Numbered from the stretch's first letter, positions 16,081 through 46,018 are shown. The stretch is 48,406 nucleotides of DNA from a virus (IMGVR_UViG_2531839448_000004); one strand, 5' to 3'. A program made the numbers and translations. Notes: generated from the letters alone by a model not told the origin.

Positions 16081-16256
16081 ATGATGAATATTGAAAACTT
16101 AAAAACAAAAGCAGAAGCAGATATTTCTGAATATATAACAAAAAAATTATTGAACTTAAGAAAAAGACCGGGAAAGAAGTTACCAGTATTCAGTTTACCG
16201 CACGGGAAAAAATGACGGGTCTTGAAAGCTATGATGTCAAGATTAATTTAATCTGA
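16081..16256 (+). pseudogene. gnsB: gnsB-like gene with a -1 frame break inside an A6 tract
   Basis: N-terminal frame MMNIENLKTKAEADISEYITKK... stops after 44 codons (TGA 16213-16215); the GnsB-like C-terminus ...TGKEVTSIQFTAREKMTGLESYDVKINLI continues in the next frame after the aaaaaa run at 16141-16146. Confidence 0.55.
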
Positions 16257-16407
16257 TGTATTCAATAATAAAATTTATCCATAAACCTCGTTTTTACGGG
16301 GTTTTGTTATATTTGAATGGTTCCGAATATCTAAATCACAATTGTTGATGGTTTTTATTAAACCAATGCAGTCCGGCTCAGGAGTGAGAGAAGCCGGACG
16401 TTATGGT

Positions 16408-16818
16408 TTAGCGTGGTAAGATCTGTGTAGTTTTCTGGATGCTTTCAGTAAATAGTAATGAGTTATCAAAGGCATAGTAATATCTTTGGTGTTCCTGGAT
16501 ATTTGTAACCCATCGGAAAACTCCTGCTTTAGCAAGATTTTCCCTGTATTGTTGAAATGTGATTTCTTTTGATTTCAACTTATTATAGGAGGTCTCTATA
16601 AGATGTTTGTTTCTGGAGAATTTAACATTTACAACCTTTTTGAGTCCTTTTACTAACACTATGTTGTCGTTTTCTAACACAATGTGAATATTATCTGTGG
16701 CTAAATAGTAAATATAAAGTGAGATATTGTGACGTTTTAGCTCAGAATAAAATAATTCACAGTTTAAATCTTTACGCACTTGATCGAATATTTCTTTAAA
16801 AATGGCAGCCTGAGCCAT
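16408..16818 (-). CDS. ydfO: YdfO (DUF1398 family)
   Basis: [50 protein letters not shown]...; paralogous to the ORF at 48002-48406. Confidence 0.8.
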
Positions 16819-17118
16819 TGGTAAACCTTCCATGTGATACGATGGCGCGTAGTTTGCATTATCGTGTTTATTGTTTCAATCTGGTCTGACCTCTTTGTGT
16901 TTTGTTGATGATTTATGTCAAATATTAAGCCTGTTTTTAATGAATAGTGTTGATTGCGTAACAAAATTGAGCCTTGCTGGCATCCAGGAGGGATATGCAA
17001 CCGACAGATGTATGTAAGGTCGATGTACTCAAACTTTCATACTTTTCCTCTTTTATGCAGTAAGATTTGAAGTAATATTTTAACCGCTAGATGACGAGCA
17101 AACGCATGGAGCGACAAA

Positions 17119-17649: not shown

Positions 17650-17689
17650 GGCTGTCAGGCTGTCAGGCTGTCAGGCTGTCAGGCTGTCG
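17650..17689. repeat. Tandem octamer repeat (GGCTGTCA) x4 plus one variant GGCTGTCG, just upstream of the cosN-like sequence
   Basis: Directly visible: ggctgtca ggctgtca ggctgtca ggctgtca ggctgtcg. Confidence 0.9.
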
Positions 17690-26715: not shown

Positions 26716-27105
26716 ATGATGTTTCTGAAACAGGACACGTTTAATTATGAAAAACAGTCCGTGGTGCTCAGTGAGCTGTCCGGGCTGCAGAGAATTGAAT
26801 ATCTGACGTTTGTTCAGCAGCGAACGGCAAAGTTTGATGCCGGGGAGGGAGAACTGCCGGAGGCTGAACGACAGATTGCTTTTCTGCGGATGGGGATGGA
26901 TATCAATGCCTGGCTGGTTTCCCGCTCACTGTGGAATGCGGAACAGTCTCAGGATGTTGAGACGCTTTACGCATCCGTTATTACAACATGGTCGTATGAT
27001 GCCCTGGGTGCGGGGGCAGAGATGGTTCTGTCGCTGAGCGGTATGGGAGCCATTGAGAATGCCGGGGATTTGGAGCATGAGGTGCTGACGCCGGAAAAGT
27101 CCTGA
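26716..27105 (+). CDS. Tail assembly chaperone gpG-like
   Basis: MMFLKQDTFNYEKQSVVLSELSGLQRIEYL... resembles lambda G (MFLKTESFEH...TVTLSELSALQRIEHL). Confidence 0.8.
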   Translation: MMFLKQDTFNYEKQSVVLSELSGLQRIEYLTFVQQRTAKFDAGEGELPEAERQIAFLRMGMDINAWLVSRSLWNAEQSQDVETLYASVITTWSYDALGAGAEMVLSLSGMGAIENAGDLEHEVLTPEKS

Positions 27106-27443
27106 CGCGGGAAATGCAGTTTGTCATGCGGCTTGCCCGGGAGTTCCGGCGGGCAGACTGGCGGCGGATGCTGTCGGAAATGTCGGCCACTGAGCTTGGT
27201 GAGTGGGGTGATTATTTCCGGATGCAGAGCTTCAGTGATGTGTGGATGGATGCGCAGTTTGCCTCGCTGAAGGCATTGATCGTGAGAATGGTGTCCGGCA
27301 GCAGTGATGCTGCGGTGGCTGATTTCAGCCTTTTACCGGAAGAGAACGGGATACCGGAGCGAACGGACGAAGAACTGATGCATCTTGGGGAAGGTATTTC
27401 CGGAGGTGTGCGTTATGGACCAGATAGCCAACCTGGTCATTGA
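27096..27443 (+). CDS. gpT-like segment, expected to be made only as a G-T fusion by -1 frameshifting near the end of G
   Basis: Open -1 frame overlapping the G terminus; A-rich slip-prone sequence CCGGAAAAG at 27091-27099 just before the G stop (27103-27105). Confidence 0.6.
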   Translation, partial: KVLTREMQFVMRLAREFRRADWRRMLSEMSATELGEWGDYFRMQSFSDVWMDAQFASLKALIVRMVSGSSDAAVADFSLLPEENGIPERTDEELMHLGEGISGGVRYGPDSQPGH

Positions 27444-30400
27444 TTTGGGGATTGATGCGGCAGAGTTTAAAAATGAAATTCCCCGTATCAAAAACCTTCT
27501 GAATGGTGCAGCCAGCGATGCAGAACGGTCTTCTGCCCGTATGCAGCGTTTTATGGAGCGTCAGACTCAGGCCGCCCGGCAGACAACGCAGGCAGCTTCT
27601 TCGGCTGCAACAGCCGCATCCGTCCATACGCAGACGGTGGAGAAGAACGCACAGGCTCATGAACGCATGGCCCGCGAGGTGGAGAAAACCCGCCAGCGCA
27701 TGGAGGCACTGAGTCAGAAAATGCGCGAGGAACAGGCGCAGGCCATGGCTCTGGCGGAGGCTCAGGATAAAGCGGCTGCTGCGTTTTATCGTCAGATTGA
27801 CAGTGTGAAACAGGCCAGTGCGGGGCTGCAGGAATTACAGCGTATTCAGCAGCAGATCCGACAGGCCAGAAACAGTGGCGGGATTGGTCAGCAGGATTAT
27901 CTGGCGCTGATTTCTGAGGTTACTGCGAAAACCCGTGTTCTTACACAGGCTGAGGAAGAGGCTACCCGACAGAAAGTGGCGTTTATCCGTCAGCTTAAAG
28001 AGCAGGCAACCCGCCTGAATCTTTCATCTTCTGAGTTGCTTCGTGCTAAGGCAGCCCAGCTGGGGGTAAGCAGTGCTGCAGAAGTGTATATCCGCAAAAT
28101 GGAGCAGGCAGGAAAAGCCACGCATTCGCTGGGTCTGAAAAGTGCAGCAGCCCGCCAGGAGATAGGCGTTCTGATAGGTGAACTGGCCCGCGGCAATTTA
28201 GGGGCGCTGAGGGGATCCGGGATAACGCTGGCTAACCGTGCCGGATGGATAGACACACTGATGTCACCGAAAGGCATGATGCTTGGCTGGGTTATTGGCG
28301 GTATTGCCGCGGCCGTCTATGGTCTGGGTAAAGCCTGGTATGACGGTCAGAAGGAGGGGGAAGAATTTAACCGCCAGTTGTCGCTGACGGGGCATTATGC
28401 CGGAGTCACTGCCGGGCAGCTGTGGACGCTCAGTCGTGCTATTTCCGGGAATGGTATCACGCAACATGCTGCAGCCGGTGCGCTGGCTCAGGTGGTGGGG
28501 AGTGGTGCATTTCGTGGAAACGATATCGGTATGGTGGCGAGAGCTGCCGCACAGATGGAGCGATCGGTTGGCCAGTCGGTCAGCGATACCATAAATCAGT
28601 TTAAGCGGCTGAAGGATGATCCTGTAAATGCCGCGAAGGCTCTGGACAATGAGCTGCATTTTCTTACTGCCACTCAGCTTGAGCAGATACGCGTCCTTGG
28701 GGAACAGGGGCGGTCCAGTGATGCGGCACGGATAGCCATGTCTGCACTGGCAGAGGAAACCGGTCGGCGTACTGCGGATATTGATAATAACCTCAATGCG
28801 CTGGGCAGTACGCTGAAGTATCTGTCTGATTTATGGAGTCGTTTCTGGGATGCGGCCATGAATATTGGTCGTGAAGACTCGCTGGATGAACAGATTTCCG
28901 CTTTACAGGAGAAAGTGTCGCGGGCGAAAAGACTCCCCTGGACGGCATCATCTTCTCAGGTTGAGTACGATCAGCAGCGTCTTAACGAGCTTCAGGAGAA
29001 AAAACGCCAGAAGGATTTGCAGGATGCAAAAGAGCAGGCAGAGCGGAATTATCAGGAGCAACAGAAACGCCGTAATGCTGAAAATGCTGCACTGAACCGG
29101 ATGAATGAAACGGAAGCAGCACGACATCAGCGTGAAATTGCGCGTATTAATGCCATGCAGTACGCCGATCAGGCTGTCAGGGATGCGGCGATACAACGTG
29201 AAAATGAACGTTACGAGAAAGCCCTGGCATCCGGTAAGAAAAAAACACGCGAACCCCGTAATGATGAGGCCACCCGGTTATTGCTGCAGTACAGTCAGCA
29301 ACAGGCACAGGTGGAAGGACAGATTGCTGCTGCCAGACAGTCAGCAGGCATTGCCACGGAAAGGATGACAGAAGCGCATAAACAGCTTCTGGCTCTGCAA
29401 CAGCGCATCAGCGACCTGGACGGGAAAAAACTGACGGCAGATGAAAAGAGTGTGCTGGCCCGTAAAGACGAACTGATTCAGGCACTGACGCTGCTGGATG
29501 TAAAACAGCAGGAGCTTCAGAAACAGACGGCACTCAACGAGCTGAAGAAAAAACAATTCAGCTGACCAGTCAACTGGCTGAAGAAGAGCGCGCTCAGCGT
29601 CAGCAACATGACCTGGATATCGCCACGGTGGGTATGGGTGATCAGCAGCGGCAGCGATATCAGGTACAACTGAGTCTTCGCCAGAAATACCAGCAACAGC
29701 TGGAGCAGTTGAGGCGGGATAGTGAGCAGAAAGGAACATATAACACGGATGACTACAGAAAGGCCGAGCAGGCGCTGACGGAGAGCCTGAACCGACAACT
29801 GAATGAGAATCGCCGTTACTGGCAACAGCTTGAAGTTGTGCAGGGTAACTGGAAAAACGGAGTCCTGCGTGCATTTCAGGATTTTACCGTGGATGCAGAT
29901 AATACGGCAGGAACAGCAGAACAGGTGTTCTCGTCAGCCTTCAGCAACATGGGAAATGGCCTGGCAACTTTTGTCACTACCGGCAAACTCAATTTCAAAT
30001 CCTTCACCTCTTCTGTGCTGTCAGATATGGCGAAAATCCTGGCGCAGGCAACCATGATGAAATCGATAAAAGGGATTGGCAGTGTACTGGGATTTGATCT
30101 CAGCAGCCTTTCCCTGAATGCCAATGGGGGATTTATCAGTCTGCTGATTTGAGTCGTTACAGTGGCACGGTGGTTAACCGTCCGACGTTTTTTGCTTTTG
30201 CAAAAGGCGCGGGTGTGATGGGGGAAGCGGGACCTGAAGCCATTCTGCCTCTGCGTCGTGGTGCTGACGGTAAGCTGGGGGTTGTGGCCGATATTGGTGG
30301 TTCAGGTATGGCGATGTTTGCCCCGCAGTACAACATCGAGATCAATAACGATGGCACGAACGGGCAGATAGGTCCGGCTGCCCTGAAGGTGGTTTATGAC

Positions 30401-30478
30401 CTTGGGAAAAAAGCGGCAGCGGACTTTATGCAACAGCAGGCCCGTGATGGTGGTCGGTTAAGTGGAGCATATCGGTAA
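27415..30478 (+). CDS. Tape measure protein gpH-like, interrupted by two frame changes (segments 27415-29565, 29628-30152, 30149-30478)
   Basis: N-terminus MDQIANLVIDLGIDAAEF (lambda H: VGDLVVDLSLDAARF); C-terminal segment ...NIEINNDGTNGQIGPAALKVVYDL matches the lambda H C-terminus; frame changes at the A6 tract 29548-29553 and the G5 tract 30126-30130. Confidence 0.75.
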
Positions 30479-30816: not shown

Positions 30817-31515
30817 ATGCAGGATATTCCACAGGAAACACATCATGAGACGACACGCCTCACTCAGTCAGCCCAGGTGGTGCTCTGGGAAATCGATCTG
30901 ACAGAGGTCGGTGGTGAACGTTATTTTTTCTGTAATGAGCAGAACGAAAAAGGTGAGCCGGTTACCTGGCAGGGGCGGCAGTATCAGGCATACCCCATTC
31001 AGGGGACGGGATTTGAACTGAATGGCAAGGGCAGTGCTGCCCGTCCGACACTGACGGTTTCTAACCTGCACGGCATGGTCACCGGGATGGCGGAAGACCT
31101 GCAGAGTCTGGTCGGCGGAACGGTGGTCAGGCGTAAGGTTTACGCCCGTTTTCTGGATGCGGTGAACTTCGTCAACGGAAACAGCGACGCCGATCCGGAG
31201 CAGGAGGTGATCAGCCGCTGGCGCATCGAGCAGTGCAGCGAACTGAGTGCGGTCAGTGCCTCCTTTGTGTTGTCCACACCGACGGAAACGGATGGTGCCG
31301 TTTTTCCGGGACGTATCATGCTGGCCAACACCTGCACCTGGACCTATCGCGGCGATGAGTGCGGTTATCACGGTCCGGCGGTCGCGGATGAATATGACCA
31401 GCCAACGTCCGACATCACGAAGGATAAATGCAGCAAATGCCTGAGCGGTTGTAAGTTCCGCAATAACGTCGGCAACTTTGGCGGCTTCCTTTCCATTAAC
31501 AAACTTTCGCAGTAA
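30817..31515 (+). CDS. Minor tail protein gpL-like (Cys-rich C-terminus)
   Basis: 232 aa; C-terminal cysteine cluster CTWTYRGDECGY...CSKCLSGCKF as in lambda L. Confidence 0.9.
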   Translation: MQDIPQETHHETTRLTQSAQVVLWEIDLTEVGGERYFFCNEQNEKGEPVTWQGRQYQAYPIQGTGFELNGKGSAARPTLTVSNLHGMVTGMAEDLQSLVGGTVVRRKVYARFLDAVNFVNGNSDADPEQEVISRWRIEQCSELSAVSASFVLSTPTETDGAVFPGRIMLANTCTWTYRGDECGYHGPAVADEYDQPTSDITKDKCSKCLSGCKFRNNVGNFGGFLSINKLSQ

Positions 31516-31520
31516 ATCCC

Positions 31521-32264
31521 ATGACACAGACAGAATCATCGATTCTGGCGCACGCCCGGCGATGTGCTCCAGCGGAGTCGTGCGGCTTCGTGGTAAGAAC
31601 GCCGGAGGGGGAAAGATATTTCCCCTGCGTGAATATCTCCGGTGAGCCGGAGGCATATTTCCGTATGTCGCCGGAAGACTGGCTGCAGGCAGAGATGCAG
31701 GGTGAGATTGTGGCACTGGTCCACAGCCACCCCGGTGGTCTGCCCTGGCTGAGTGAGGCCGACCGGCGGCTGCAGGTGCAGAGTGATTTGCCGTGGTGGC
31801 TGGTCTGCCGGGGGACGATTCATAAGTTCCGCTGTGTGCCGCATCTCACCGGGCGGCGCTTTGAGCACGGTGTGACGGACTGTTACACACTGTTCCGGGA
31901 TGCTTATCATCTGGCGGGGATTGAGATGCCGGACTTTCATCGTGAGGATGACTGGTGGCGTAACGGCCAGAATCTCTATCTGGATAATCTGGAGGCGACG
32001 GGGCTGTATCAGGTGCCGTTGTCAGCGGCACAGCCGGGCGATGTGCTGCTGTGCTGTTTTGGTTCATCGGTGCCGAATCACGCCGCAATTTACTGCGGCG
32101 ACGGCGAGCTGCTGCACCATATTCCTGAACAACTGAGCAAACGAGAGAGGTACACCGACAAATGGCAGCGACGCACACACTCCCTCTGGCGTCACCGGGC
32201 ATGGCGCGCATCTGCCTTTACGGGGATTTACAACGATTTGGTCGCCGCATCGACCTTCGTGTGA
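31521..32264 (+). CDS. Tail assembly protein gpK-like (JAB/MPN + NlpC/P60 domains)
   Basis: HSHPGG motif of the JAB/MPN domain and a conserved Cys/His region; position after L. Confidence 0.88.
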   Translation: MTQTESSILAHARRCAPAESCGFVVRTPEGERYFPCVNISGEPEAYFRMSPEDWLQAEMQGEIVALVHSHPGGLPWLSEADRRLQVQSDLPWWLVCRGTIHKFRCVPHLTGRRFEHGVTDCYTLFRDAYHLAGIEMPDFHREDDWWRNGQNLYLDNLEATGLYQVPLSAAQPGDVLLCCFGSSVPNHAAIYCGDGELLHHIPEQLSKRERYTDKWQRRTHSLWRHRAWRASAFTGIYNDLVAASTFV

Positions 32265-32833
32265 AAACGGGGGCTGAAGCCATCCGGGCACTGGCCACAC
32301 AGCTCCCGGCGTTTCGTCAGAAACTGAGCGACGGCTGGTATCAGGTACGGATTGCCGGGCGGGACGTCAGCACGTCCGGGTTGACGGCGCAGTTACATGA
32401 GACTCTGCCTGATGGCGCTGTGATTCATATTGTTCCCAGAGTCGCCGGGGCCAAGTCAGGTGGCGTATTCCAGATTGTCCTGGGAGCAGCCGCCATTGCC
32501 GGATCATTCTTTACTGCCGGAGCCACCCTTGCAGCATGGGGGGCAGCCATTGGGGCCGGTGGTATGACCGGCATCCTGTTTTCTCTCGGTGCCAGTATGG
32601 TGCTCGGTGGTGTGGCGCAGATGCTGGCACCGAAAGCCAGGACGCCCACGGCAGCCAGTACAGATAACGGCAAACAGAACACGTATTTCTCGTCACTGGA
32701 TAACATGGTTGCCCAGGGCAATGTTCTGCCTGTTCTGTACGGGGAAATGCGCGTGGGATCACGTGTGGTTTCTCAGGAGATCAGCACGGCAGACGAAGGG
32801 GATGGTGGTCAGGTTGTGGTGATTGGTCGCTGA
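32162..32833 (+). CDS. Tail assembly protein gpI-like
   Basis: 223 aa; RICLYGDLQRFGRRIDLRVKTGAEAIRALATQLPAFRQ...; overlaps the 3' end of K as in lambda. Confidence 0.85.
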   Translation: MAATHTLPLASPGMARICLYGDLQRFGRRIDLRVKTGAEAIRALATQLPAFRQKLSDGWYQVRIAGRDVSTSGLTAQLHETLPDGAVIHIVPRVAGAKSGGVFQIVLGAAAIAGSFFTAGATLAAWGAAIGAGGMTGILFSLGASMVLGGVAQMLAPKARTPTAASTDNGKQNTYFSSLDNMVAQGNVLPVLYGEMRVGSRVVSQEISTADEGDGGQVVVIGR

Positions 32834-32893: not shown

Positions 32894-35800
32894 ATGGGTA
32901 AAGGCAGCAGTAAGGGGCATACCCCGCGCGAAGCAAAGGACAACCTGAAGTCCACGCAGTTGCTGAGTGTGATCGATGCCATCAGCGAAGGGCCGATTGA
33001 AGGTCCGGTGGATGGATTAAAAAGCGTGCTGCTGAACAGTACACCGGTGCTGGACAGTGAGAGGAATACTAACATCTCCGGTGTCACGGTGGTGTTCCGG
33101 GCAGGTGAGCAGGAACAGACACCGCCGGAGGGATTTGAATCATCAGGTTCCGAGACGGTACTGGGTACGGAAGTGAAATACGACACGCCGATCACCCGGA
33201 CCATCACGTCGGCAAACATTGACCGTCTGCGCTTTACCTTCGGTGTGCAGGCACTGGTGGAAACCACCTCAAAGGGGGACAGGAATCCGTCGGAAGTCCG
33301 CCTGCTGGTTCAGATACAACGTAACGGTGGCTGGGTGACGGAAAAAGACATCACCATTAAGGGCAAAACCACCTCGCAGTATCTGGCCTCGGTAGTGGTG
33401 GATAACCTGCCGCCGCGCCCGTTTAATATCCGGATGCGCAGGATGACGCCGGACAGCACCACAGACCAGCTGCAGAACAAAACGCTCTGGTCGTCATACA
33501 CCGAAATCATCGATGTGAAACAGTGCTACCCGAACACGGCACTGGTCGGCGTGCAGGTGGATTCGGAGCAGTTCGGCAGCCAGCAGGTGAGCCGTAATTA
33601 TCATCTGCGCGGGCGTATTCTGCAGGTGCCGTCGAACTATAACCCGCAGACGCGGCAATACAGCGGTATCTGGGACGGAACGTTTAAGCCAGCATACAGC
33701 AATAACATGGCCTGGTGTCTGTGGGATATGCTGACCCATCCACGCTACGGCATGGGGAAACGTCTCGGTGCGGCGGATGTGGACAAATGGGCGCTGTATG
33801 TCATCGGCCAGTACTGCGACCAGTCAGTGCCGGACGGCTTTGGCGGCACGGAGCCGCGCATCACCTGTAATGCGTACCTGACCACACAGCGCAAGGCGTG
33901 GGATGTGCTCAGTGATTTCTGCTCGGCGATGCGCTGTATGCCGGTATGGAACGGGCAGACGCTGACGTTCGTGCAGGACCGGCCGTCGGATAAGGTGTGG
34001 ACCTATAACCGCAGTAATGTGGTGATGCCGGATGATGGCGCGCCGTTCCGCTACAGCTTCAGCGCCCTCAAGGACCGCCATAATGCCGTTGAGGTGAACT
34101 GGATTGACCCGGATAACGGCTGGGAGACGGCGACAGAGCTTGTGGAGGACACGCAGGCCATTGCCCGTTACGGTCGTAACGTCACGAAGATGGATGCCTT
34201 TGGCTGTACCAGCCGGGGGCAGGCACACCGCGCCGGGCTGTGGCTGATTAAAACGGAGCTGCTGGAAACGCAGACCGTGGACTTCAGCGTGGGTGCCGAA
34301 GGGCTTCGCCATGTACCGGGCGATGTCATTGAAATCTGTGATGATGACTATGCCGGTATCAGCACCGGCGGGCGCGTGCTGGCGGTGAACAGCCAGACCC
34401 GGACGCTGACGCTCGACCGTGAAATCACGCTGCCATCCTCCGGTACCACGCTGATAAGCCTGGTTGACGGAAGTGGCAATCCGGTCAGCGTGGAGGTCCA
34501 GTCCGTCACCGACGGCGTGAAGGTAAAAGTGAGCCGTGTTCCTGACGGCGTTGCCGGATACAGCGTGTGGGGGCTGAAGCTGCCGACGCTGCGCCAGCGC
34601 CTGTTCCGCTGCGTGAGTATCCGTGAGAACGATGACGGTACGTATGCCATCACTGCCGTGCAGCATGTACCGGAAAAAGAAGCCATCGTGGATAACGGGG
34701 CGCACTTTGACGGCGACCAGAGCGACACGGTGAATGGTGTCACGCCGCCAGCAGTGCAGCACCTGACTGCCGAAGTCACCGCAGACAGTGGGGAGTATCA
34801 GGTACTGGCCCGCTGGGATACGCCGAAGGTGGTGAAGGGCGTGAGCTTCATGCTTCGCCTGACCGTGGCAGCGGATGACGGCAGTGAGCGGCTGGTCAGC
34901 ACGGCCCGGACGGCGGAAACCACATACCGCTTCAGGCAGCTGGCGCTGGGGAACTACAGGCTGACAGTCCGGGCAGTAAATGCGTGGGGACAGCAGGGCG
35001 ATCCGGCATCGGTATCGTTCCGGATTGCCGCACCGGCAGCGCCGTCGCAGATTGAGCTGACACCGGGGTATTTTCAGATAACCGCCACGCCGCATCTTGC
35101 GGTTTATGATCCGACGGTACAGTTTGAGTTCTGGTTCTCGGAAACGCGGATTACCGATATCAGGCAGGTTGAAACCACAGCCCGCTACCTTGGCACGGGG
35201 CTGTACTGGATAGCCGCCAGTATCAATATCAAACCGGGCCATGATTATTACTTTTATATCCGCAGTGTGAACACCGTTGGCAAATCGGCATTCGTGGAGG
35301 CCGTCGGTCGGGCGAGCGATGATGCGGAAGGTTACCTGGATTTTTTCAAAGGCAAGATAACCGAATCCCATCTCGGTAAAGGGCTGCTGGAAAAAGTCGA
35401 CCTGACGGAAGATAACGCCAGCAGACTGGATCAGTTTTCGAAAGAGTGGAAAGACGCCAACGATAAATGGAATGCCATGTGGGGCGTCAAAATTGAGCAG
35501 ACCGAAGACGGTAAGCATTATGTCGCGGGACTTGGCCTCAGCATGGAGGATACAGAGGAAGGCAAACTGAGCCAGTTTCTGGTTGCCGCTAACCGTATCG
35601 CGTTTATTGACCCGGCAAACGGGAATGAAACGCCGATGTTTGTGGCGCAGGGCAACCAGATATTCATGAACGAAGTGTTCCTGAAACGCCTGACGGCCCC
35701 CACCATTACCAGTGGTGGAAATCCACCGGTATTTTCCCTGACACCGGACGGAAAGCTGACCGCTAAAAATGCGGATATCAGTGGCAGTGTGAATGCGAAC

Positions 35801-36307
35801 TCCGGGACGCTCAACAACGTCACGATAAATGAAAACTGTACGATTAAGGGTATGCTGGAGGCGAATCAGGTCAGAGGTGATTTTGTTAAAACAGTATCCA
35901 AATCATTCCCGAAAAAGGCTGGTACGTGGGGTAACACGGAAACACCAGACGGGACGGTTACAGTCACCATCAGCGATGATCATAACTTTGACCGTCAAAT
36001 CATTATTCCGCCCATTATCTTTAACGGTATAGCGTATGACGATCCGGGAAGTGGTGATAACCCGGGAGGTACAAGGTACACGGGGTATGGTTTTGAAGTT
36101 CGCAAAAACGGCGTATTAATCGCATCCAGAGAAACTAAAGGGGCCATTCCCGGTAGTTACAGTGCGGTTATTGATATGCCGAGTGGCAGGGGAAGCGTCA
36201 CTCTGGAGTTTAAGATTTTCCAGAAAGGCAATCAGGGGGCAGGCAATATCACCGACTGTACGGTGATTGTGACCAAAAAGGCTGCTTCCGGCATCAGTAT
36301 TCGTTGA
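32894..36307 (+). CDS. Host-specificity protein / central tail fibre gpJ-like
   Basis: 1137 aa; position after I; lambda-J-like N-terminus. Confidence 0.92.
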
Positions 36308-37041: not shown

Positions 37042-40000
37042 ATGGCAGTAAAGATTTCAGGTGTACTGAAAGACGGTGCAGGTAAACCGGTACAGAACTG
37101 CACAATCCAGCTGAAAGCAAAACGTAACAGCACCACGGTGGTGGTGAACACGCTGGCATCTGAAAATCCGGATGAAGCAGGGCGTTACAGCATGGACGTT
37201 GAGTACGGTCAGTACAGCGTTATTCTGTTGGTGGAAGGATTCCCGCCGTCACATGCCGGGACCATCACAGTGTATGAAGATTCCCGACCCGGTACGCTGA
37301 ATGATTTTCTCGGTGCCATGACGGAGGATGATGCCCGTCCGGAGGCACTGCGCCGTTTTGAGCTGATGGTGGAGGAGGTGGCGCGTAACGCGTCCGTGGT
37401 GGCACAGAACACGGCAGCCGCGAAGAAGTCAGCCAGTGATGCCAGCACATCAGCCCGTGAGGCGGCAACCCATGCGACTGATGCTGCAGGCTCAGCACGC
37501 GCAGCCAGCACGTCAGCCGGACAGGCCGCGTCGTCGGCTCAGTCAGCGTCTTCCAGCGCAGGAACGGCATCAACAAAGGCCAGTGAAGCATCGAAAAGTG
37601 CTGCTGCTGCAGAGTCCTCAAAAAGCGCGGCGGCCACCAGTGCCGGTGCGGCGAAAACGTCAGAAACGAATGCGGCAGCGTCACAACAATCAGCCGCCAC
37701 TTCTGCATCCACCGCGACCACGAAAGCGTCAGAAGCTGCCACCTCAGCCCGGGATGCGGCGGCCTCAAAAGAGGCAGCGAAATCATCAGAAACGAACGCA
37801 TCATCAAGTGCCAGTAGTGCAGCTTCCTCGGCAACGGCGGCAGGAAATTCCGCGAAGGCCGCAAAAACGTCTGAGACGAATGCAGATAACAGCGCACAGG
37901 CGGCAGCGGCCTCACAAACTGCATCGGCAAACTCCGCGACAGCAGCCAAAAAATCAGAAACCAACGCGAAAAATAGCGAGGCAGCAGCAAAGAGCAGCGA
38001 AACAAACGCTAAAGCCAGCGAAACTAATGCTAAATCCAGTGAAACAAACGCGGCGAAATCTGCGGCGGACGCACTTAATTATCGCAACCAGGCGCAAGTA
38101 ATTGTAGGCGATAATATCGGTCTTGGCTCAGCACCGCGTGATTGTCCTGATATTTCCGGCAACCCATCAGGGTATATCGGATTTATGCGCATTATGAGTA
38201 ATGCAAAAGGCTTTCCATCGATTGCATCCGGTGAAAGCAGTCTTACGGGGTTTATTAGTCAGGTAGATGGAACACCAGCGTATACAGGTGTATTTCAGGG
38301 ATGGGCTACGCGCTCGCTTTATACTTATCGCTGGAATCCGACAATAGGCCCGCAGTGGACGCGTCACGCAAGAAAAGATGAAGTGGACAGGCTTACTCAA
38401 CTAACAGGTAATACACGCGTATATTGTCAAAATGCAAGCAAATTTTTTGGTATCTACGATTCAGGAACATGGGGTTATTACGATGCAGAGAATAGCGAAT
38501 GGATTCCGCTTTCGATCGCGGCCGGAGGTACTGGTGCGGCAACTATTGATGGTGCCAGAACGAATCTTGGCTTAGGTAGGAACAACAGCCCTCAACTTAA
38601 CAGTCTATTTCTTGATAGATATAGTGATTCGACCAATACATACACATCTAGTGGAATTCTCCATACAAGACTGTTAGCAACTGACAGCACTGTGCGTCTT
38701 GGTGCTGATATGTATGTTGAGACTTTATCAAATGAGCCAGGTCAATTAACAATAAGGTTTACATACGATGGTTCAACTGGTGCTTCAAAATATCTAAACC
38801 TTAACTCAGAAGGTAATTTAATTGTAGATAGTGCGATACTGAGATCAACGGTTGAAAAACCTTTACAAATAAGGAGCGCTAACCCAGCAATAAGATTTAA
38901 TGAAACAGATCGCCCGGCTAACACGCCTACTTATACTCTCATTGCTAATGCTGGCGACTGGTTTATTCAGAAACGCGATTATGATGATGCCGGAAGCGTT
39001 AGTAACGCAATTGCATATAATTTCGCAAACGACAGAATTGATGTGCAAAATCTTAAAGCGTCTGGGTTAATTACAGCTAACTCAGGAATCGCAACATTAA
39101 CAGGTCATGACTGGAACTCTCAGCATACTGATAACGTCGACAAATTTAGACCAATCGCAGGCAGTACAAACGGCCCGGCAGGCTCTATGGTTCTTGGCGG
39201 CATTCATGTTCAATTTAGTAAAAATTATGCTGTGCAGTTCGGAGGCCGCAATTCCGGTTTTTGGGGAAGAACAATTGAAAATGGAACGACGCAGGAATGG
39301 AAGAAATTACTAACAGTAGACGATCTCAATTCATCTACCGATCTTGCTGTCAGGTCATTAACCACATCTAACCCGGTAAAATCTGGCGGAGGGCGAATTG
39401 ATGTCCTTGGAAGCACGTCAGACTATAGCAAAATGGATTGCTTTGTACGTGGGTTTGATAGCACCGGTAATTCTCTCGCGTGGGCGTTGGGTTCATCAGT
39501 CGGCGTAAGTAAGATGCTGTCGCTAAAAAATTTCTTTAGCGGAGCTGAGATACTGCTAAATGGTAATGACGGCGCGGTTCAACTCAAAACAGGTGCTGTT
39601 AACGGGGCTAAAGCGCAGGCGCTCACTATCAACAAGGATGAGGTTAACTCAACTGTTGATTTAACTCTTACAAAACAAACAGGGACTGGAAATCGTTTTG
39701 TTTTACAGAACTTAGGTAATACAGAACTATCATTTGCCGCAAAAGTATGGGGATCAAGTGATCGACAAAACGTTTTTGAGGTTGGAACGTCTGCTGCGTA
39801 TCTGTTTTATGCGCAAAAAACGTCAGCAGGCCAGTTGTTTGATGTAAATGGCGCTATTAATTGCACAACGCTGAATCAGTCATCAGACCGCGACCTTAAA
39901 GACGATATTCTCGTTATCAGCGACGCGACGAAAGCAATCCGTAAAATGAACGGATACACCTACACGCTCAAGGAAAACGGGATGCCTTATGCTGGCGTTA

Positions 40001-40317
40001 TTGCACAGGAAGTAATGGAGGCGATACCAGAAGCTGTGGGATCGTTTACTCATTATGGTGAAGAGTTGCAAGGTCCGACCGTTGACGGCAACGAGCTACG
40101 CGAAGAAACTCGCTATCTTAATGTTGACTACTCCGCCGTGACGGGTTTACTTGTTCAGGTCGCCCGTGAAACAGATGATCGCGTTACCGCGCTGGAAGAG
40201 GAAAACACAACGCTACGTCAAAATCTGGCAACAGCAGGCACCCGGATCAGCACTCTGGAAAATCAGGTAAGCGAACTGGTTGCACTTGTCCGGCAGTTAA
40301 CAGGAAGCGAACATTGA
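37042..40317 (+). CDS. Side tail fibre protein with Ala/Ser-rich repeat collar and C-terminal intramolecular-chaperone (S74-like) domain
   Basis: N-terminus MAVKISGVLKDGAGKPVQNCTIQLKAKRNSTTVV...; C-terminal ...DRDLKDDILVISDATKAIRKMNGYTYTLKENGMPYAGVIAQEV... is chaperone-domain-like. Confidence 0.85.
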   Translation: MAVKISGVLKDGAGKPVQNCTIQLKAKRNSTTVVVNTLASENPDEAGRYSMDVEYGQYSVILLVEGFPPSHAGTITVYEDSRPGTLNDFLGAMTEDDARPEALRRFELMVEEVARNASVVAQNTAAAKKSASDASTSAREAATHATDAAGSARAASTSAGQAASSAQSASSSAGTASTKASEASKSAAAAESSKSAAATSAGAAKTSETNAAASQQSAATSASTATTKASEAATSARDAAASKEAAKSSETNASSSASSAASSATAAGNSAKAAKTSETNADNSAQAAAASQTASANSATAAKKSETNAKNSEAAAKSSETNAKASETNAKSSETNAAKSAADALNYRNQAQVIVGDNIGLGSAPRDCPDISGNPSGYIGFMRIMSNAKGFPSIASGESSLTGFISQVDGTPAYTGVFQGWATRSLYTYRWNPTIGPQWTRHARKDEVDRLTQLTGNTRVYCQNASKFFGIYDSGTWGYYDAENSEWIPLSIAAGGTGAATIDGARTNLGLGRNNSPQLNSLFLDRYSDSTNTYTSSGILHTRLLATDSTVRLGADMYVETLSNEPGQLTIRFTYDGSTGASKYLNLNSEGNLIVDSAILRSTVEKPLQIRSANPAIRFNETDRPANTPTYTLIANAGDWFIQKRDYDDAGSVSNAIAYNFANDRIDVQNLKASGLITANSGIATLTGHDWNSQHTDNVDKFRPIAGSTNGPAGSMVLGGIHVQFSKNYAVQFGGRNSGFWGRTIENGTTQEWKKLLTVDDLNSSTDLAVRSLTTSNPVKSGGGRIDVLGSTSDYSKMDCFVRGFDSTGNSLAWALGSSVGVSKMLSLKNFFSGAEILLNGNDGAVQLKTGAVNGAKAQALTINKDEVNSTVDLTLTKQTGTGNRFVLQNLGNTELSFAAKVWGSSDRQNVFEVGTSAAYLFYAQKTSAGQLFDVNGAINCTTLNQSSDRDLKDDILVISDATKAIRKMNGYTYTLKENGMPYAGVIAQEVMEAIPEAVGSFTHYGEELQGPTVDGNELREETRYLNVDYSAVTGLLVQVARETDDRVTALEEENTTLRQNLATAGTRISTLENQVSELVALVRQLTGSEH
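37600..38060 (+). repeat. In-frame tandem repeats encoding reiterated A-K-(S/T)-S-E-T-N-A motifs within the tail-fibre gene
   Basis: Repeated peptide units AAKTSETNAAAS, AKSSETNASSSAS, AKTSETNADNSAQ, KKSETNAKNSEAAAKSSETNAKASETNAKSSETNAAKSA. Confidence 0.8.
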
Positions 40318-40353
40318 TATCCTTCAAGCCCTGAAGGAGGCTGTTCCTGGTAC

Positions 40354-40488
40354 GTTCAGACTGTTGCTGAGCTGGAGATCGCAACGGAGGAAGAGAAAGC
40401 GTTTCTGGCCGCATGGAAAACATATCGGGTATTGCTGAACCGTGTTGATACAGTAAACCCCGTCTGGCCTCCACCTTCGAAGCGATAG
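40354..40488 (+). pseudogene. Tail-fibre assembly (Tfa) C-terminal remnant
   Basis: Reads [43 protein letters not shown], resembling conserved Tfa C-termini; no start codon and no N-terminal part; in frame directly after the stf stop. Confidence 0.6.
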
Positions 40489-40792
40489 CCCAGCAACTCC
40501 TAAATAGCTGCGCATAATACCGCTACACCTGCCGTTTTACTGACATTTGGAATATTGCGTGAGGGCAACATATCGAGGGGCAGATACAGCTCGGTCAAAT
40601 AGAAAAACAGCCCCACTATTTACCATGCAATAGCTGGTCAAAAGGAGAGCACTATTCCGCTCCGCGTAGTATTTTGTGTTTATAGTGATAACTTAGGTAA
40701 TGCTTAGTCACTAAGATACTTTGCTATTGGAGAGCGATTTATAATGTGGGCGCAACAGATTTTTACTATTGCGCCACTTGCTCTTGTGAGTA

Positions 40793-41881
40793 CTATTCGC
40801 TATAAGTTAATGTTGGTTTTGAAAGTCTTTTGGATATTGTTTTTCCGATATTAATGAATGGAGTTTCAATATATTTATAAATAAAGAATGATAAGAACAA
40901 GCTAAGAGCAATAATGAATGAAAACTTAGAGAACCCAGGTTTTTCATAAAGCGGAATGAAATCCTTAAAATTAATTAAAAATAGCATTACTATCGCATGG
41001 GATAAATACAGAGAGTAAGAGATATCACCTAGCTTACTGAGTATTTTATTTTCCCTTAATCCGAAGTTAACTTCATAAAGTAAAACTCCCGTAATTATGG
41101 AGGCTGCCCACAATCCGAAGTTTAAAGGGCCATGACCAAATCTGAATTGATAAAAATATGAGCAAACACCAAATGAAACCAAAAGGAATGATATCGCCTT
41201 TGCGTTTTTTATATATTTAAATTTTCTGTGTATTATATACAGAAACATCCCATAAACGAATTCTAACAGCATGGGTGATGACATTAAGTTTAGAAAGCCA
41301 ATATGCCAATGACCTGTATCACCAATCGTAAACTTACTTGATAGAGAAAGGCTGTTGGAAAATTTCAACTGTATGAGAAGTAGCGGGACTATCAATGCAA
41401 TAACTGATATTAATAATCTGTTTTTATGACTCAGCGATATTGCAAGCATAAAAATGAAATAAAAATAGACTTCAAAGGTTAATGTCCATGCTGGATAAAG
41501 CACGTTGTATCCGAAGAATGGCGCTTCTGAATAATAGTCCAGGTGAAGCAGAAACAATGAACGCAATAATTCACTTTCGGTGAAGACTGGGTTCAATAAA
41601 AAGAATAAGATTGTGCAAATGAAAAATACAGGGTAAATCCTGAAAAAACGCCTGGTCATAAAGTTAATAGGGGAATTTGTTTCTTTTTTTTGACTCGATA
41701 ACATTATTATAAATCCACTTATAATAAAAAACAGATCAACCCCAAAACCACCACTAATAAACAATAAATCACCTAGATCTTTTTGTGCGTAAACTTCATT
41801 TAGGTATTGTTTATTGTGATATGCAACAACGAGTAATGCTGCTACACCTCGCAAATAGTGAATTGATTTTACCTTCTTCAT
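40793..41881 (-). CDS. Acyltransferase-3 family membrane protein (OafA/Oac-like O-antigen acetyltransferase candidate)
   Basis: 362 aa, polytopic, markedly AT-rich; N-terminal YLRGVAALLVVAYH motif typical of acyltransferase-3 proteins. Confidence 0.75.
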   Translation of the reverse strand: MKKVKSIHYLRGVAALLVVAYHNKQYLNEVYAQKDLGDLLFISGGFGVDLFFIISGFIIMLSSQKKETNSPINFMTRRFFRIYPVFFICTILFFLLNPVFTESELLRSLFLLHLDYYSEAPFFGYNVLYPAWTLTFEVYFYFIFMLAISLSHKNRLLISVIALIVPLLLIQLKFSNSLSLSSKFTIGDTGHWHIGFLNLMSSPMLLEFVYGMFLYIIHRKFKYIKNAKAISFLLVSFGVCSYFYQFRFGHGPLNFGLWAASIITGVLLYEVNFGLRENKILSKLGDISYSLYLSHAIVMLFLINFKDFIPLYEKPGFSKFSFIIALSLFLSFFIYKYIETPFINIGKTISKRLSKPTLTYSE

Positions 41882-42319
41882 TTTTATATAATCACTGTTC
41901 CAATTTTTTTATTTTACAAACAATTCTATCTAGCTCATTAGTACTCAAAGTCAGATTGGTAGCAATAAAAAAACAAGATATGTGATGACATGGCGCGGGG
42001 CTCAGAACCACTCGTGTATTTTCGCCACTGGCTATGACTGGCTGCACCTGCAAGATCTGCCATTTGTGTGCCAGTATACCCAAGCTCTGACTTTATGTTT
42101 ACCAGATCCTCTGGAGTGCCGGGGAGTATAATCGTTGATTAATCGAATCTGCAACTATTTCAGAACGACCTAGGTTAAAGTGCGCTCTGCAGTCTCTTAT
42201 ATAAGGTGATACTTTAATTGTCTGGAAACTGGACAGGTTAGGAAGGAGCAGGAAACATCTTATTATACTTACCGAGTAGCTGCGGGTAAGGGGGGGATTT
42301 CCGTAGCCTGACAGGTAAC

Positions 42320-42594
42320 ATTGACACGTCAACATCGATGGTTTTTTTTATTTTTCCATGTGATGGAGCCCTGGTTGAAATGAAGCGTGAACTGATTGAT
42401 GACTGAACAAAAGTTGGACTGGAAGATGCTCGCGCACAGGGAGGAATTGGTGGACGTCGTCCTAAACTTACATCAGAACAATGGGCGCAGGCCGGGCGAT
42501 TAATTGCATCAAAAGTCCCGCGTCAGAAGGTGGCGATCATCTATGATATTGGTGTATCGACTTTGTATAAGAGGTTTCCAGCCAGGATTATATA
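42320..42594 (+). pseudogene. Decayed C-terminal fragment of a Pin/Hin-family serine DNA invertase
   Basis: Frames give ...GALVEMKRELIDD* then ...GGIGGRRPKLTSEQWAQAGRLIASKVPRQKVAIIYDIGVSTLYKRFPARII*, matching the invertase C-terminal HTH region, with in-frame stops and frame changes; catalytic N-terminus absent. Confidence 0.65.
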
Positions 42595-42918
42595 AAACTG
42601 CAGACACGCCGTATGCAAGACGTGCTGCGGTTGGTTGATGCACTTTCGAGAGTGTATGTATTGAATAATTTCCAACCGTCATTAATTTTATTTATTTTTT
42701 GCATGAGAGGATTTGAACCTCCGAGCCTCGACACCTTATGACAACGCGATATTCCCTTGATGACCGCTATGCGCCAAAATAACCAATTGATAAATAAGTT
42801 GATTTTAATTGGTTGGAAGCAAGTCAGGTCAAATTCAGCATGCCGCTCTCTGTATCGGGTAGTTAAATTTTTCTATAACTGATAGTAATATGTTAAAACT
42901 CACACAGATAAATTATCA

Positions 42919-44901
42919 TTGCTCAACAAGTATAATGGAGTTCCCGTGGATACAGCAGAACATGATGGCAAATTTGCTTGGGCTAGTTTTTATGAGGCTT
43001 TTGCCAACGCGTTACTGACTTGGCGAAATCGTAGAGATGAATTAGTCAAAGGTATTCATCTAATTGCCTCAGGTGTGGAAGGAATGTCCCATCTGCAGGA
43101 CAAATCTATTATGGGAGAGATCTTTCCCTTAAAAGACATTTGTCCGTTTACTACTATGGGCTTGTTCAATCGTAACTTGACCGACAGCAATCGCAAAATT
43201 ATTGCTGCCAAGCTAGCGAATTTGTTGGGCGTGAACGAACCGATTCCTGACTCCTTTGCCGGAATCCCGCTGTTGAATAACCAAAAATCTTGGTTCTTTG
43301 GTTATGAAAAGTCACGCGACCCTAATGACATTGAATGCTTGTGGGAAATGTTCTCGCAGGCAATGACCTTTGCGGATAACCAGAATACTAACTCTGCAGA
43401 CTTCACTGCCGCATATGACATCGCTTCTACAGTAATGAATGTCGGTTGGAATCTCACCATGGGGTTGTACTGGACCCGTCCTTGGTTCTACCCTACTTTA
43501 GATAGCCAGTCGCAGTATTACATTCAGACAGTGTTAAACATTAAGATCATTAAAAACGGGGCAAAAGGTCGCTGTAGTGGACAAAGTTACCTGAGTCTTA
43601 TGCGGGCGCTGAACGAGGTCTTTACCCAACCAAACTATCCGGTTCATTCTTTCCCAGAACTTTCTTTATCAGCGTGGAATACAGATCTTAGCCAGTCTAA
43701 AGATGAGGTGGCAAATAGAACGTGGAAAGCCTCTTTACTGAATAAAATTAAGGCGTTATGCCTGAAAAAAAATGGCCCTTATTTCACTGCTTCGGAGTTG
43801 GAAGAAAACTACTTGGACGTATTCAAGGTAGAGCATCCTGAGAGCAAAACAGTTACAAGCTCAATCTACTTTTATCTACAGAAACTATGCAATGATGATG
43901 AGTTAAAGTCCCTTGAGTCCGGAAATTATGAATACCTGAATTTTGAGAAAAACGAATCCCAGACGATAACTGAGGAAACTGTCGAAGAGAGTGCGCCGTT
44001 GCCAAAACTCACTCACGTTCCTTATGACATCAGTCATCTGGTGCAGGATGGCTGTTTCTTGGAAGAGGCTAAGATCCAACTCACACTTCAGCGCCTGATC
44101 GACAAGAAAAACCTGATATTACAAGGACCACCCGGAACTGGAAAAACCTGGTTAGCGCGACGTCTGGCGTACTGCTTGATGGGAGAAAAAGCACCTGAGC
44201 GTATTAGCGCGGTGCAATTTCACCCGAACCTCTCTTACGAAGACTTTATTCGCGGCTGGCGTCCAGGTAAAGAAGGGCAATTGACGCTAATTGATGGACC
44301 TTTTGTAAATGCAATCAAAACTGCAGTCAATAATCCTACCTCGAAATATGTGGTGATAATTGAAGAGATTAATCGTGGCAATCCGGCGCAAATCTTCGGT
44401 GAAACACTCACGTTGATGGAAGCAGATAAACGCACGCCGACTGAGGCATTATCTCTTTCCTATCCTAAAAATGATGATGAAAAAATATACATTCCTGAGA
44501 ATCTATATATCATCGGTACGATGAATATTGCAGACCGCTCACTCGCACTACTTGACCTAGCGCTGCGCCGTCGTTTCGCGTTTATCGATCTAAAGCCAGC
44601 TTTTAATGACGCGTGGAGAAACTGGGTAAATTATAATTACGCAATTGATTTTGACATGTTAGCATTCATCAAATCTCGACTGACGGTACTTAACGATATG
44701 CTGGCAAAAGATGTTACCTTAGGACCACAGTTTTGTATCGGTCACAGCTATGTCACCCCAGCTATCGGCCAAAAAATCAACGATGCCCAGGCTTGGTATG
44801 AACAAGTCGTTGATACAGAGATCTGCCCTTTGCTCGCCGAATATTGGTTCGATGCTCCAAATAAAGTCGATGAAGCCAGAAAAGTGTTATTAGCAAAATG
44901 A
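42919..44901 (+). CDS. McrB-like AAA+ GTPase with a long (~400 aa) N-terminal region of unrecognised type; start codon uncertain (TTG 42919 or GTG 42946)
   Basis: C-terminal motifs LILQGPPGTGKTW, VVIIEEINRGNPAQIFGETLTLMEADKR, YIIGTMNIADRSLALLDLALRRRFAF match the McrB GTPase family; ATGA overlap with the downstream McrC-like gene. Confidence 0.75.
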   Translation: MLNKYNGVPVDTAEHDGKFAWASFYEAFANALLTWRNRRDELVKGIHLIASGVEGMSHLQDKSIMGEIFPLKDICPFTTMGLFNRNLTDSNRKIIAAKLANLLGVNEPIPDSFAGIPLLNNQKSWFFGYEKSRDPNDIECLWEMFSQAMTFADNQNTNSADFTAAYDIASTVMNVGWNLTMGLYWTRPWFYPTLDSQSQYYIQTVLNIKIIKNGAKGRCSGQSYLSLMRALNEVFTQPNYPVHSFPELSLSAWNTDLSQSKDEVANRTWKASLLNKIKALCLKKNGPYFTASELEENYLDVFKVEHPESKTVTSSIYFYLQKLCNDDELKSLESGNYEYLNFEKNESQTITEETVEESAPLPKLTHVPYDISHLVQDGCFLEEAKIQLTLQRLIDKKNLILQGPPGTGKTWLARRLAYCLMGEKAPERISAVQFHPNLSYEDFIRGWRPGKEGQLTLIDGPFVNAIKTAVNNPTSKYVVIIEEINRGNPAQIFGETLTLMEADKRTPTEALSLSYPKNDDEKIYIPENLYIIGTMNIADRSLALLDLALRRRFAFIDLKPAFNDAWRNWVNYNYAIDFDMLAFIKSRLTVLNDMLAKDVTLGPQFCIGHSYVTPAIGQKINDAQAWYEQVVDTEICPLLAEYWFDAPNKVDEARKVLLAK

Positions 44902-46018
44902 CGACAATAACCGGGAGTGAGCAACATACAGCATCACGTATTCCCATGCGAAATATCTGGATGCTGATGCTGTACGCTTCAGATCTGTTTCGTCAGTTAG
45001 GGCGCAATCAGATCGCAGTAGAAGATAACCCAGCAGAAATCCCCGACCTGGTGGCGACAATCCTCCTTCATGAGATTACGCTGCGCCGACGTCGCAATTT
45101 AAATATGGGATACCAAACTTGTCATGCGGCCCTGAACCGGGTGAGAGGGCGCATTGACATACTGTATACTGCCAGTCATCAACTACTGGAACGGGGACAG
45201 GTTGCCTGCCATTTTCAAGACATAACCCTCAACACCCCCCGAAATCGCTATGTTCGCTGTGCGTTAGAACGTCTGGCCTCAATCATAGTGAAACCGTCTT
45301 TGGCGGCAGATTGCCATTTTATGGCAATATCACTTCGCCGTGAGGGGATAAATGGAGGATATCCTGCCCCCACGAATTACCCTCAGTGTGGCGTTTTGGA
45401 CGCCATGATGCCGCAGATAAACCGATGGTCGATGCCGCACGATTAGCTTTTGAACTGCTGATGCCGACCGAAGATCAAGGCCAATATCTTTTACCTGCGC
45501 CCTCAAATAACCTTTACTGGATGAGAAGACTATTTGAAAAAGGTATCGCTGGCTTATATCGTGTACACCTTGCCAAAACAACTTGGCAGGTCTCTGCAGG
45601 GAAAGAGCTGAAATGGGCGTTGAGCGATCAAAGTGCAGGTAGTGCAGAGATTTTCCCGACAATGAAGTCAGACATTATTCTGGAACACAAGACTGCCCAG
45701 CGGCGTATTATTATCGATACCAAATTTAATTCGATTCTGACAAAGGGTTGGCATCGGGAGCAATCACTACGTAATGGCTATATTTATCAGCTATATACCT
45801 ACCTTAGAACACAGGAGAACAAGACGGATCCGCTTTCGCTCAATGCCGCTGGTCTTCTACTTCATCCAGCTGTTGGCTATATGCTTAATGAGTATGTTGT
45901 CACTCAGGGACATAAGATCCATTTTGCTACAGTAGATATGACGGTAGATGCTAAAGCAATTAAAAAACAATTGCTGGCAATAGCCCATGATTGTGCAGGA
46001 GTCGCGGTTGATGACTAA
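44898..46018 (+). CDS. McrC-like nuclease subunit, split into two frames (44898-45446 and from about 45344 to 46018)
   Basis: N-terminus ...IPMRNIWMLMLYAS... (McrC: IPVRNIYYMLTYAW); second frame carries the D-x-K nuclease core RIIIDTKF and YIYQLYTYL (McrC: ILIVDAKYY, NLYQLMNYL). Confidence 0.6.

Follow-up and report, generated by a model that had tools for sequence, protein, structure and literature searches.

Homopolymer frame breaks in a prophage region of the Escherichia coli TX1999 draft genome: probable consensus errors and one candidate lesion

Do the interrupted reading frames of a prophage region record lost or recoded functions, or a miscounted sequence? The window analyzed here, a viral stretch of 48,406 nucleotides (IMGVR_UViG_2531839448_000004), contains three genes whose frames are broken at four homopolymer runs. 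Taken at face value, the breaks would imply a prophage without tails, a dead McrBC-type restriction system, the loss of GnsB, and perhaps recoding. Comparison with related genomes indicates that most of them are very probably consensus errors of a draft assembly, that of E. coli TX1999. The broken genes are the following.

16084 to 16256, plus strand: gnsB, broken at an A7 run (16140-16146) that is A8 in most genomes.
27415 to 30478, plus strand: tail tape measure gene, in three ORFs, split at an A6 run (29548-29553) and a G5 run (30126-30130).
44898 to 46018, plus strand: mcrC of an McrBC-like pair, broken at a C5 run (45367-45371) that is C6 in five annotated relatives.

The initial annotation held that each site it named needs one extra base, and the repaired frames bear this out at all four. 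The zero-frame product of gnsB is 43/44 aa long, and one additional A at 16140-16146 gives the 57-aa GnsB. Both tape measure runs are longer elsewhere (A7 at 29548-29553, G6 at 30126-30130), and insertion of one A in the first and one G in the second produces a protein of 1021 aa, 100% identical to that of strain CV839-06. With one C added at 45367-45371, a full McrC is obtained, in which WP_001425460.1 is contained exactly. Some details had to be corrected: the gnsB run had been given as A6 at 16141-16146 and is A7 at 16140-16146, and the four genes announced in the annotation's title are three genes with four sites. The mcrC break had been placed within 45344-45446, an interval in which the C5 run is the break and the G4 run plays no part. 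The four sites are real, but the list was incomplete, as the same one-base shortfall occurs at eight further runs.

These further sites emerge from comparison with the nearest complete genome. The window is 100% identical to contig AFEB01000030.1 of the TX1999 draft (GCA_000225245.2; protein accessions EGX...), where it occupies positions 63148-111553; the identity extends over 22,151 bp in the alignment, and the truncated products bear TX1999 accessions. The assembly itself is not among 5,426 complete RefSeq E. coli genomes; their best match, CV839-06, served as the reference. Over approximately 42 kb of near-identical sequence, the two differ by 3 substitutions (one of them a transition), one 8-bp repeat unit, and 12 single-base indels, and the right-end 12.6 kb contain 0 substitutions vs. 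6 deletions relative to this reference. In each of the 12 indels it is the window that lacks the base (sign test, 2.4e-4), and each falls in a run of six or more bases in CV839-06. Besides the four sites above, the 12 comprise the following.

11 to 15, plus strand: A5 run in an IS3-family transposase; A6 in CV839-06 and ETEC1731.
7125 to 7460, minus strand: flxA, with a T5 run (7183-7187) that is T6 in all 5 relatives.
12009 to 12014, plus strand: A6 run abutting the TTG start of cspF (minus strand), in its 5′ leader; A7 in 11 of 11 relatives read.
41904 to 41910, plus strand: intergenic T7 run; T8 in CV839-06 and T7 in four other relatives, ambiguous.
42290 to 42349, plus strand: G7 (42290-42296) and T8 (42342-42349) runs in a recombinase pseudogene remnant; 7, 8 or 9 in relatives, ambiguous.
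46654 to 46674, plus strand: intergenic A6 (46654-46659) and T5 (46670-46674) runs, between mcrC and an icd remnant.

Six of the 12 sites are in functional genes (gnsB, the tape measure gene twice, mcrC, flxA, and the IS3-family transposase), and six fall between genes, in a leader, or in the remnant of a pseudogene. In the transposase, the A6 of the relatives is followed by G, forming the programmed-frameshift motif A_AAA_AAG; the A5 at 11-15 is also present in the TX1999 contig. The shortfall in flxA replaces the last 18 aa of the product; outside TX1999, the exact altered product is matched by just two short Logan contigs. At 46654-46659 the run is one base longer in the four relatives readable there, and at 46670-46674 it is one longer in CV839-06 and ETEC1731, the sole relatives readable at that place. 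Overall, every relative fetched has the longer run at 9 of the 12 sites. Over-calling in CV839-06 was considered as an alternative source of the differences and rejected at these nine sites, where all other readable relatives agree with CV839-06. The relatives give conflicting lengths for the three long non-coding runs, where the error may lie in CV839-06 and not in the window; the T7 at 41904-41910 in particular may be correct as it stands in the window.

The deletions depend strongly on run length. By length in the reference, shortfalls affect 0 of 2434 runs of 3-5, 5 of 64 runs of 6, 3 of 13 runs of 7, 3 of 8 runs of 8, and the single run of 9 (1/1), that is, 12 of 86 runs of at least 6 vs. 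0 of 2434 shorter ones (Fisher, 1e-18); runs of at least 7 also differ from runs of 6 (P = 0.01). Homopolymer under-calling, which the initial annotation had proposed as the leading reading, is well supported by deletions that spare all runs of 3-5, climb in rate with length, go in one direction, and are blind to coding. The base caller or assembler would have counted long homopolymers one base too few. The homopolymer-length errors made by flow-based (454, Ion Torrent) and nanopore platforms have the same character, as the indels of the window occur only in mononucleotide runs, more often in longer ones, are one-way and coding-blind, and are specific to the assembly, and the same two tape measure runs are also short in plainly error-ridden assemblies. 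The error profile and an accession series of 2011 suggest a platform of the pyrosequencing type (454); no literature on the TX1999 sequencing platform was found, the strain being met merely via a citation of one of its proteins.

A rate that rises with run length can also have a biological origin. In mismatch repair (MMR)-deficient E. coli, the indel rate is exponential in run length (PMC8510543), in agreement with the rates by run length in the window, and TX1999 might be a mutator of this kind, with homopolymer indels genome-wide. The composition of the changes makes this very improbable. MMR-deficient lines were reported to accumulate 30,061 substitutions vs. 5,324 small indels, or about 15% indels (PMC8510543), so that ~5.6 substitutions per indel would be expected; the ratio here is 3 to 12. 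At an indel fraction of 15%, the probability of 12 indels in 15 changes is ~4e-8, and it is ~6e-6 if only the firm sites are counted (9 of 12 changes as indels). The lone transition among three substitutions and the uniform direction of the 12 indels also argue against a mutator. Extrapolation of ~0.3 indels per kb to the whole genome would moreover lead to ~1,400 indels, presumably with hundreds of genes inactivated.

Closely related assemblies provide a separate view. Sister contigs were reached through a DUF1441 variant; a terminase variant was too common (527 blocks) and gave other lineages. Consistent with under-calling, the related assemblies that are readable at 12009, gnsB, and the tape measure G5 site are without the deletion. 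The closest relatives (AIGE01, NLFO01, NXMG01, and SRR12505091) have A8 in gnsB, AIGE01 has A7 at 12009, and G6 is found at 30126 in AIGD01, AIGE01, UIKY01, and SRR491126. AIGE01 has private homopolymer deletions at window positions 11436 and 15698, and none private to NLFO01, NXMG01, SRR12505091, or UIKY01, four assemblies from other sources, occurs in the sequence compared; the defect thus tracks the assembly and not the lineage. For mcrC, 46654, and 46670, no sister sequence was obtained, the 1091-aa tail-fibre product not being on record and the J product being unique to TX1999. The doubly broken tape measure fragment is otherwise found only in assemblies shredded by frameshifts throughout. 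The C5 of mcrC is also present in CP029630.1, where neighboring genes are intact, and in several Logan contigs, some of them heavily fragmented. Among complete-genome records, the short allele is carried by 41 of 2137 for gnsB (1.9%), 2 of 1805 for the tape measure A6 (0.11%), 4 of 1539 for the tape measure G5 (0.26%), and 1 of 291 for the mcrC C5 (0.34%). These sequence comparisons make it most likely that the living strain has an intact gnsB, mcrC, and flxA and an intact 3′ portion of the tape measure gene.

The runs could also have been shortened in vivo by replication slippage, with a cryptic prophage and its cargo decaying under relaxed selection into genuine pseudogenes. The element does look cryptic, judging from its near-identical copy in CV839-06, where just an IS3-family element separates ynfB from a truncated ydfD, and the annotation lists an ISEsa1 remnant but no gene for an integrase, excisionase, or exonuclease. 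In STEC409 and NCTC9699, all three genes are present at that place; TX1999 has the order ynfB-IS-dicB, the same as CV839-06. Because the element looks cryptic regardless of the tape measure, the earlier remark on failed tail assembly loses its force. The decay of cryptic lambdoid prophages (Qin, e14-type) is a natural parallel, as the element is a Qin-site/icd-site lambdoid hybrid whose copy in CV839-06 is devoid of int/xis and has acquired IS insertions. Prophage decay normally also brings substitutions, larger deletions, and IS insertions, whereas the changes observed here consist of one-base homopolymer losses and hardly any substitutions. The balance of 12 one-base deletions (9 of them firm) against 3 substitutions, with no insertions, is far from measured E. 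coli spectra. The TX1999 chromosomal backbone outside the window (10.5 kb) has no shortfall, as would be expected if decay were confined to the prophage, but so few runs of six or more bases (14) give P(0) = 0.19 and leave the comparison without power. Genuine decay is favored by the recurrence of gnsB A7 in many assemblies and by a tape measure A6 that is common to four assemblies, one of them otherwise clean; against it, the changes at gnsB, 12009, and G5 are absent in the closest relatives, and the private deletions of AIGE01 are different ones. Decay is therefore unlikely to account for the series, and true pseudogenisation is plausible for one site only, the tape measure A6.

This A6 run (29548-29553) is found in AIGD01, AIGE01, UIKY01, and SRR491126, which goes beyond simple independent error of the flow-based or nanopore type. 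In the 16 kb compared, it is the only homopolymer indel of UIKY01. The short run recurs in unrelated long-read assemblies too, and one of the four carriers, AIGE01, has the private homopolymer deletions noted above. We lean slightly toward a true frameshift specific to the lineage, in a prophage that was cryptic already, and this is the sole candidate for a real lesion worth keeping. The frameshifts of the TX1999 draft are otherwise not to be taken as biology. Comparisons of pseudogenes or gene content that use TX1999 will inflate the pseudogene count at runs of six or more, and the same holds for at least one sister draft, AIGE01.

The A7 of gnsB is more widespread. Its truncated product is encoded on at least 1000 contigs, and A7 recurs in drafts that look clean, JAJARS01 among them; the carriers among complete genomes are diverse strains, a survey in which only the -1 length was looked for. 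Since 41 complete genomes and apparently clean drafts carry it, A7 probably exists as a real allele somewhere and not as a recurrent miscall alone, and it could be real in this strain. A more far-reaching idea is that the A8 tract is a true mutational hot spot, with A7 truly present in a minority of natural E. coli, and that ribosomal -1 or transcriptional slippage on the in-register A_AAA_AAA could give leaky, tunable expression; GnsB, a small Qin-prophage protein, would then be under a contingency-like switch and gnsB would not be a dead gene. As in simple-sequence contingency loci, the A8/A7 tract is coding and both lengths occur in many unrelated E. coli. Unlike in such loci, the minor allele is at only ~2%, and switching within a clone and a selected on/off function are without support here. 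We regard the switch as improbable.

Slippage at the level of expression, through programmed or adventitious -1 ribosomal frameshifting or through transcriptional slippage, could in principle restore full-length products at all four sites, the broken frames then being a functional arrangement. The initial annotation had listed ribosomal -1 slippage among its alternatives. The gnsB tract comes closest: its zero-frame codons ACA AAA AAA place A_AAA_AAA in register for tandem -1 slippage, and A_AAA_AAA heptamers do shift in E. coli, although far less than A_AAA_AAG (PMC5009743). At the tape measure sites (G_AAA_AAA, T_GGG_GGA) and in mcrC (C_CCC_ACG), however, no X_XXY_YYZ heptamer is in register. 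Structures at the stimulatory distance (5-9 nt) are lacking downstream (folding z of 0.89, 0.00, and -0.27), and the one stable hairpin (z of -3.4) begins ~50 nt beyond the G5 run. The same one-base shortfalls are also present outside coding sequence. Among complete genomes, the reading frame is intact in 98.1% of the loci homologous to gnsB and in 99.9%, 99.7%, and 99.7% of those homologous to the other three sites. The broken arrangement is thus not conserved, which refutes programmed frameshifting as a feature of these genes and leaves the slippage alternative unsupported; that recoding in any form explains the breaks is scarcely credible.

A conserved frameshift arrangement does exist in the window, as a lambda-type G/GT pair immediately upstream of the tape measure gene.

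26719 to 27105: G.
27114 to 27443: T frame, at -1.

As in the -1 programmed frameshift of phage lambda G/GT (PMC5009743), the T frame of the window is at -1 relative to G and overlaps in the lambda manner. This G/T arrangement is conserved in every annotated relative, unlike the breaks studied here, which are not conserved and, gnsB excepted, are without an in-register slippery heptamer.

The window carries an E. coli lambdoid prophage plus flanking cargo, and the breaks in its genes were verified both in ORF lists and in the raw sequence. They are listed here with the frequency of the window's allele in complete genomes, obtained by short exact-match queries.

gnsB: A7 run at 16140-16146; reading frame stops at codon 43/44; allele in 41/2137 records
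Tape measure gene: ORF pieces 27385-29565, 29628-30152 and 30149-30478; broken at A6 29548-29553 (allele in 2/1805 records) and G5 30126-30130 (4/1539)
mcrC-like gene: ORF pieces 44898-45446 and 45386-46018; broken at C5 run 45367-45371 (allele in 1/291 records)

The gnsB run, which the initial annotation had read as A6 at 16141-16146, is thus an A7; one additional A opens the frame in which the conserved C-terminal sequence resumes, and yields an intact 57-aa GnsB. Both tape-measure breaks lie where they had been placed, and adding one A and one G restores 1021 aa, every residue as in the protein of CV839-06, the nearest complete genome and our reference. The break in the McrC-like gene, previously left without an exact point, maps to the C5 run, where one more C produces an McrC that contains WP_001425460.1 exactly. 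This gene belongs to an McrBC-like pair (651-aa AAA ATPase plus McrC; 42946-46018) at the icd-proximal prophage end, followed directly by an icd remnant, iraM and ycgX; its ATPase gene is unbroken here.

The breaks are real features of the record and statistically far from chance, and their cause is ordinary: most likely, homopolymers were systematically called too short in a draft assembly, and no more than one or two of the alleles are genuine. The truncated products match E. coli TX1999 proteins exactly (EGX23946.1, EGX23948.1, EGX23962.1). Contig AFEB01000030.1 of the TX1999 assembly (GCA_000225245.2) matches window 17415-39565 at 100% identity, which places the window at positions 63148-111553 of this contig, in a draft from around 2011; that draft is absent from the complete RefSeq set compared (5,426 genomes).

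From 1 to ~31800 the window matches the CV839-06 prophage adjoining ynfB, and from there to 48406 the one at icd. Over the near-identical stretches (1-31800 and 38450-48406, ~42 kb in total), it differs from CV839-06 by three substitutions, an additional unit of an 8-bp repeat and 12 one-base indels. In every one of the 12 it is the window that lacks a base, each time within a homopolymer; the final 12.6 kb has six of these deletions and no substitution. Under-calling, the cause initially preferred, is supported by this pattern, in which only runs of at least six bases in the reference are affected, coding and non-coding alike.

Reference homopolymers by length, and those shortened in the window
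Length 3-5: 0/2434
Length 6: 5/64
Length 7: 3/13
Length 8: 3/8
Length 9: 1/1

Six of the 12 sites are in functional genes (gnsB, tape measure twice, mcrC, the flxA 3′ end and the A6G slippery motif of an IS3-family transposase), and the others in leader, intergenic DNA or a recombinase pseudogene remnant. The transposase copy, at the left end (1-921; site 11-15), has A5G in place of the A_AAA_AAG frameshift motif seen in relatives; were this real, it could no longer make fused transposase, and a further under-call is more likely. The variable 8-bp tandem repeat, GGCTGTCA, lies at 17650-17689, upstream of the DUF1441/terminase genes, with four full copies and one variant in the window, one fewer in CV839-06 and two fewer in UIKY01, a close relative.

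Natural shortening of the runs by replication slippage would likewise depend on run length, so it is the mutation spectrum, rather than length dependence, that decides against it. Mismatch-repair-deficient E. coli mutation-accumulation lines gave 30,061 substitutions and 5,324 small indels (PMC8510543); at that 15% indel fraction, 12 indels among 15 changes have P ~4e-8, and 9/12 (only sites where every relative reads one base more) P ~6e-6. The one-way direction adds P 2e-4 to 2e-3. A stretch of flanking TX1999 chromosomal backbone (10.5 kb) has no indels, which says little about whether the backbone is spared, since with only 14 runs of at least six bases zero is expected 19% of the time.

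Run lengths were compared at ten loci from eight other genomes, one of them the O26:H11 11368 reference. At 9/12 sites every locus readable there is one base longer than the window, while at the three long non-coding runs (41904, 42290, 42342) the relatives differ among themselves (7, 8 or 9). The gnsB A7 allele is certainly present in other strains; the closest relatives of TX1999, however, lack it, as they do other shortfalls. The sister draft AIGE01, whose upstream contig was fetched via a DUF1441 variant, reads A8 for the gnsB run and A7 for the run at 12009. True pseudogenes, an alternative raised initially, are disfavored for gnsB, 12009 and the G5 run, whose changes the closest relatives lack, and retain a case at the tape-measure A6. 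There, a 716-aa N-terminal fragment, and hence A6, is common to AIGD01, AIGE01, UIKY01 and the Logan assembly of SRR491126, all four of which have G6 at the second site. Since these four assemblies share the A6, and since it is the sole homopolymer indel between UIKY01 and CV839-06 over 16 kb, a true frameshift in the small lineage of its sharers is marginally favored. Against this, A6 also occurs in unrelated long-read assemblies; in one of these, strain 204446, frameshift flags extend to the adjoining T and C40-peptidase genes.

Elsewhere, the doubly broken middle tape-measure fragment was found only in assemblies with nearly all phage genes in fragments, namely single-contig ones of 5.2 Mb and a set from Logan. 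These carriers read 5 or 6 at the first run and 5 at the second, indicating that both are recurrently under-called in error-rich data. AIGE01 (AIGE01000015.1) has homopolymer deletions of its own at window 11436 (T6 to T5) and 15698 (T8 to T7), which points to the same error process there; no private homopolymer indels were found in NLFO01, NXMG01, SRR12505091 or UIKY01, close relatives of other provenance, over 15-20 kb each. Across public assemblies, errors of the homopolymer type are widespread in this region. Frameshift-flagged genes also occur in or beside these prophage regions in several "complete" RefSeq genomes, e.g., the ETEC1731 tape measure, NCTC9699 rzpQ and capsid, the S30 tail gene and ycgX, and 204446 T, tape measure and C40 peptidase.

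A programmed frameshift that keeps a two-frame arrangement functional is expected to be conserved as such. Ribosomal -1 slippage, also proposed initially, does not fit: 98-99.9% of homologous loci in complete genomes are in frame, and RNA folding found no stable downstream structure at stimulatory distance at any break site. An in-register slippery heptamer exists at gnsB alone: A_AAA_AAA, which shifts less in E. coli than A_AAA_AAG (PMC5009743). A strong hairpin (GCCUUUUGCAAAAGC core) lies at 30182-30213 within the tape-measure coding sequence (80-nt window, z -3.4 vs shuffles), too distant from the G5 run for frameshift stimulation. In contrast to the broken genes, the tail chaperones G (26719-27105) and T (27114-27443), just upstream of the tape measure, have a conserved, genuine -1 arrangement with T in the -1 frame, like the lambda G/GT programmed frameshift. 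A possible slip site, GGAAAAG at 27093-27099, differs from canonical G_GGA_AAG.

The prophage element appears cryptic regardless of whether its tape measure is intact. The near-identical copy in CV839-06 has an IS3-family element directly adjoining ynfB and a truncated ydfD, and it lacks the integrase, excisionase and exonuclease genes that STEC409 and NCTC9699 have there; TX1999 has the same ynfB-IS-dicB order. The prophage is also a hybrid (30814-32361; crossover ~31715-31815), with a left arm equal to the prophage that CV839-06 and ETEC1731 carry on the ynfB side (Qin site) and a right arm equal to their icd-site prophage; in those genomes the two prophages lie ~440 kb apart in inverted orientation. 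Recombination in tail genes L/K may have produced a true inversion, or the draft may contain a chimeric join; UIKY01 crosses over too, ~200 bp further left. The J (tail tip) protein (32894-36307, 1137 aa) has no other exact match in a 15-billion-protein collection, and its differences from the CV839-06 icd-prophage J at ~40 nucleotide positions indicate a mosaic variant.
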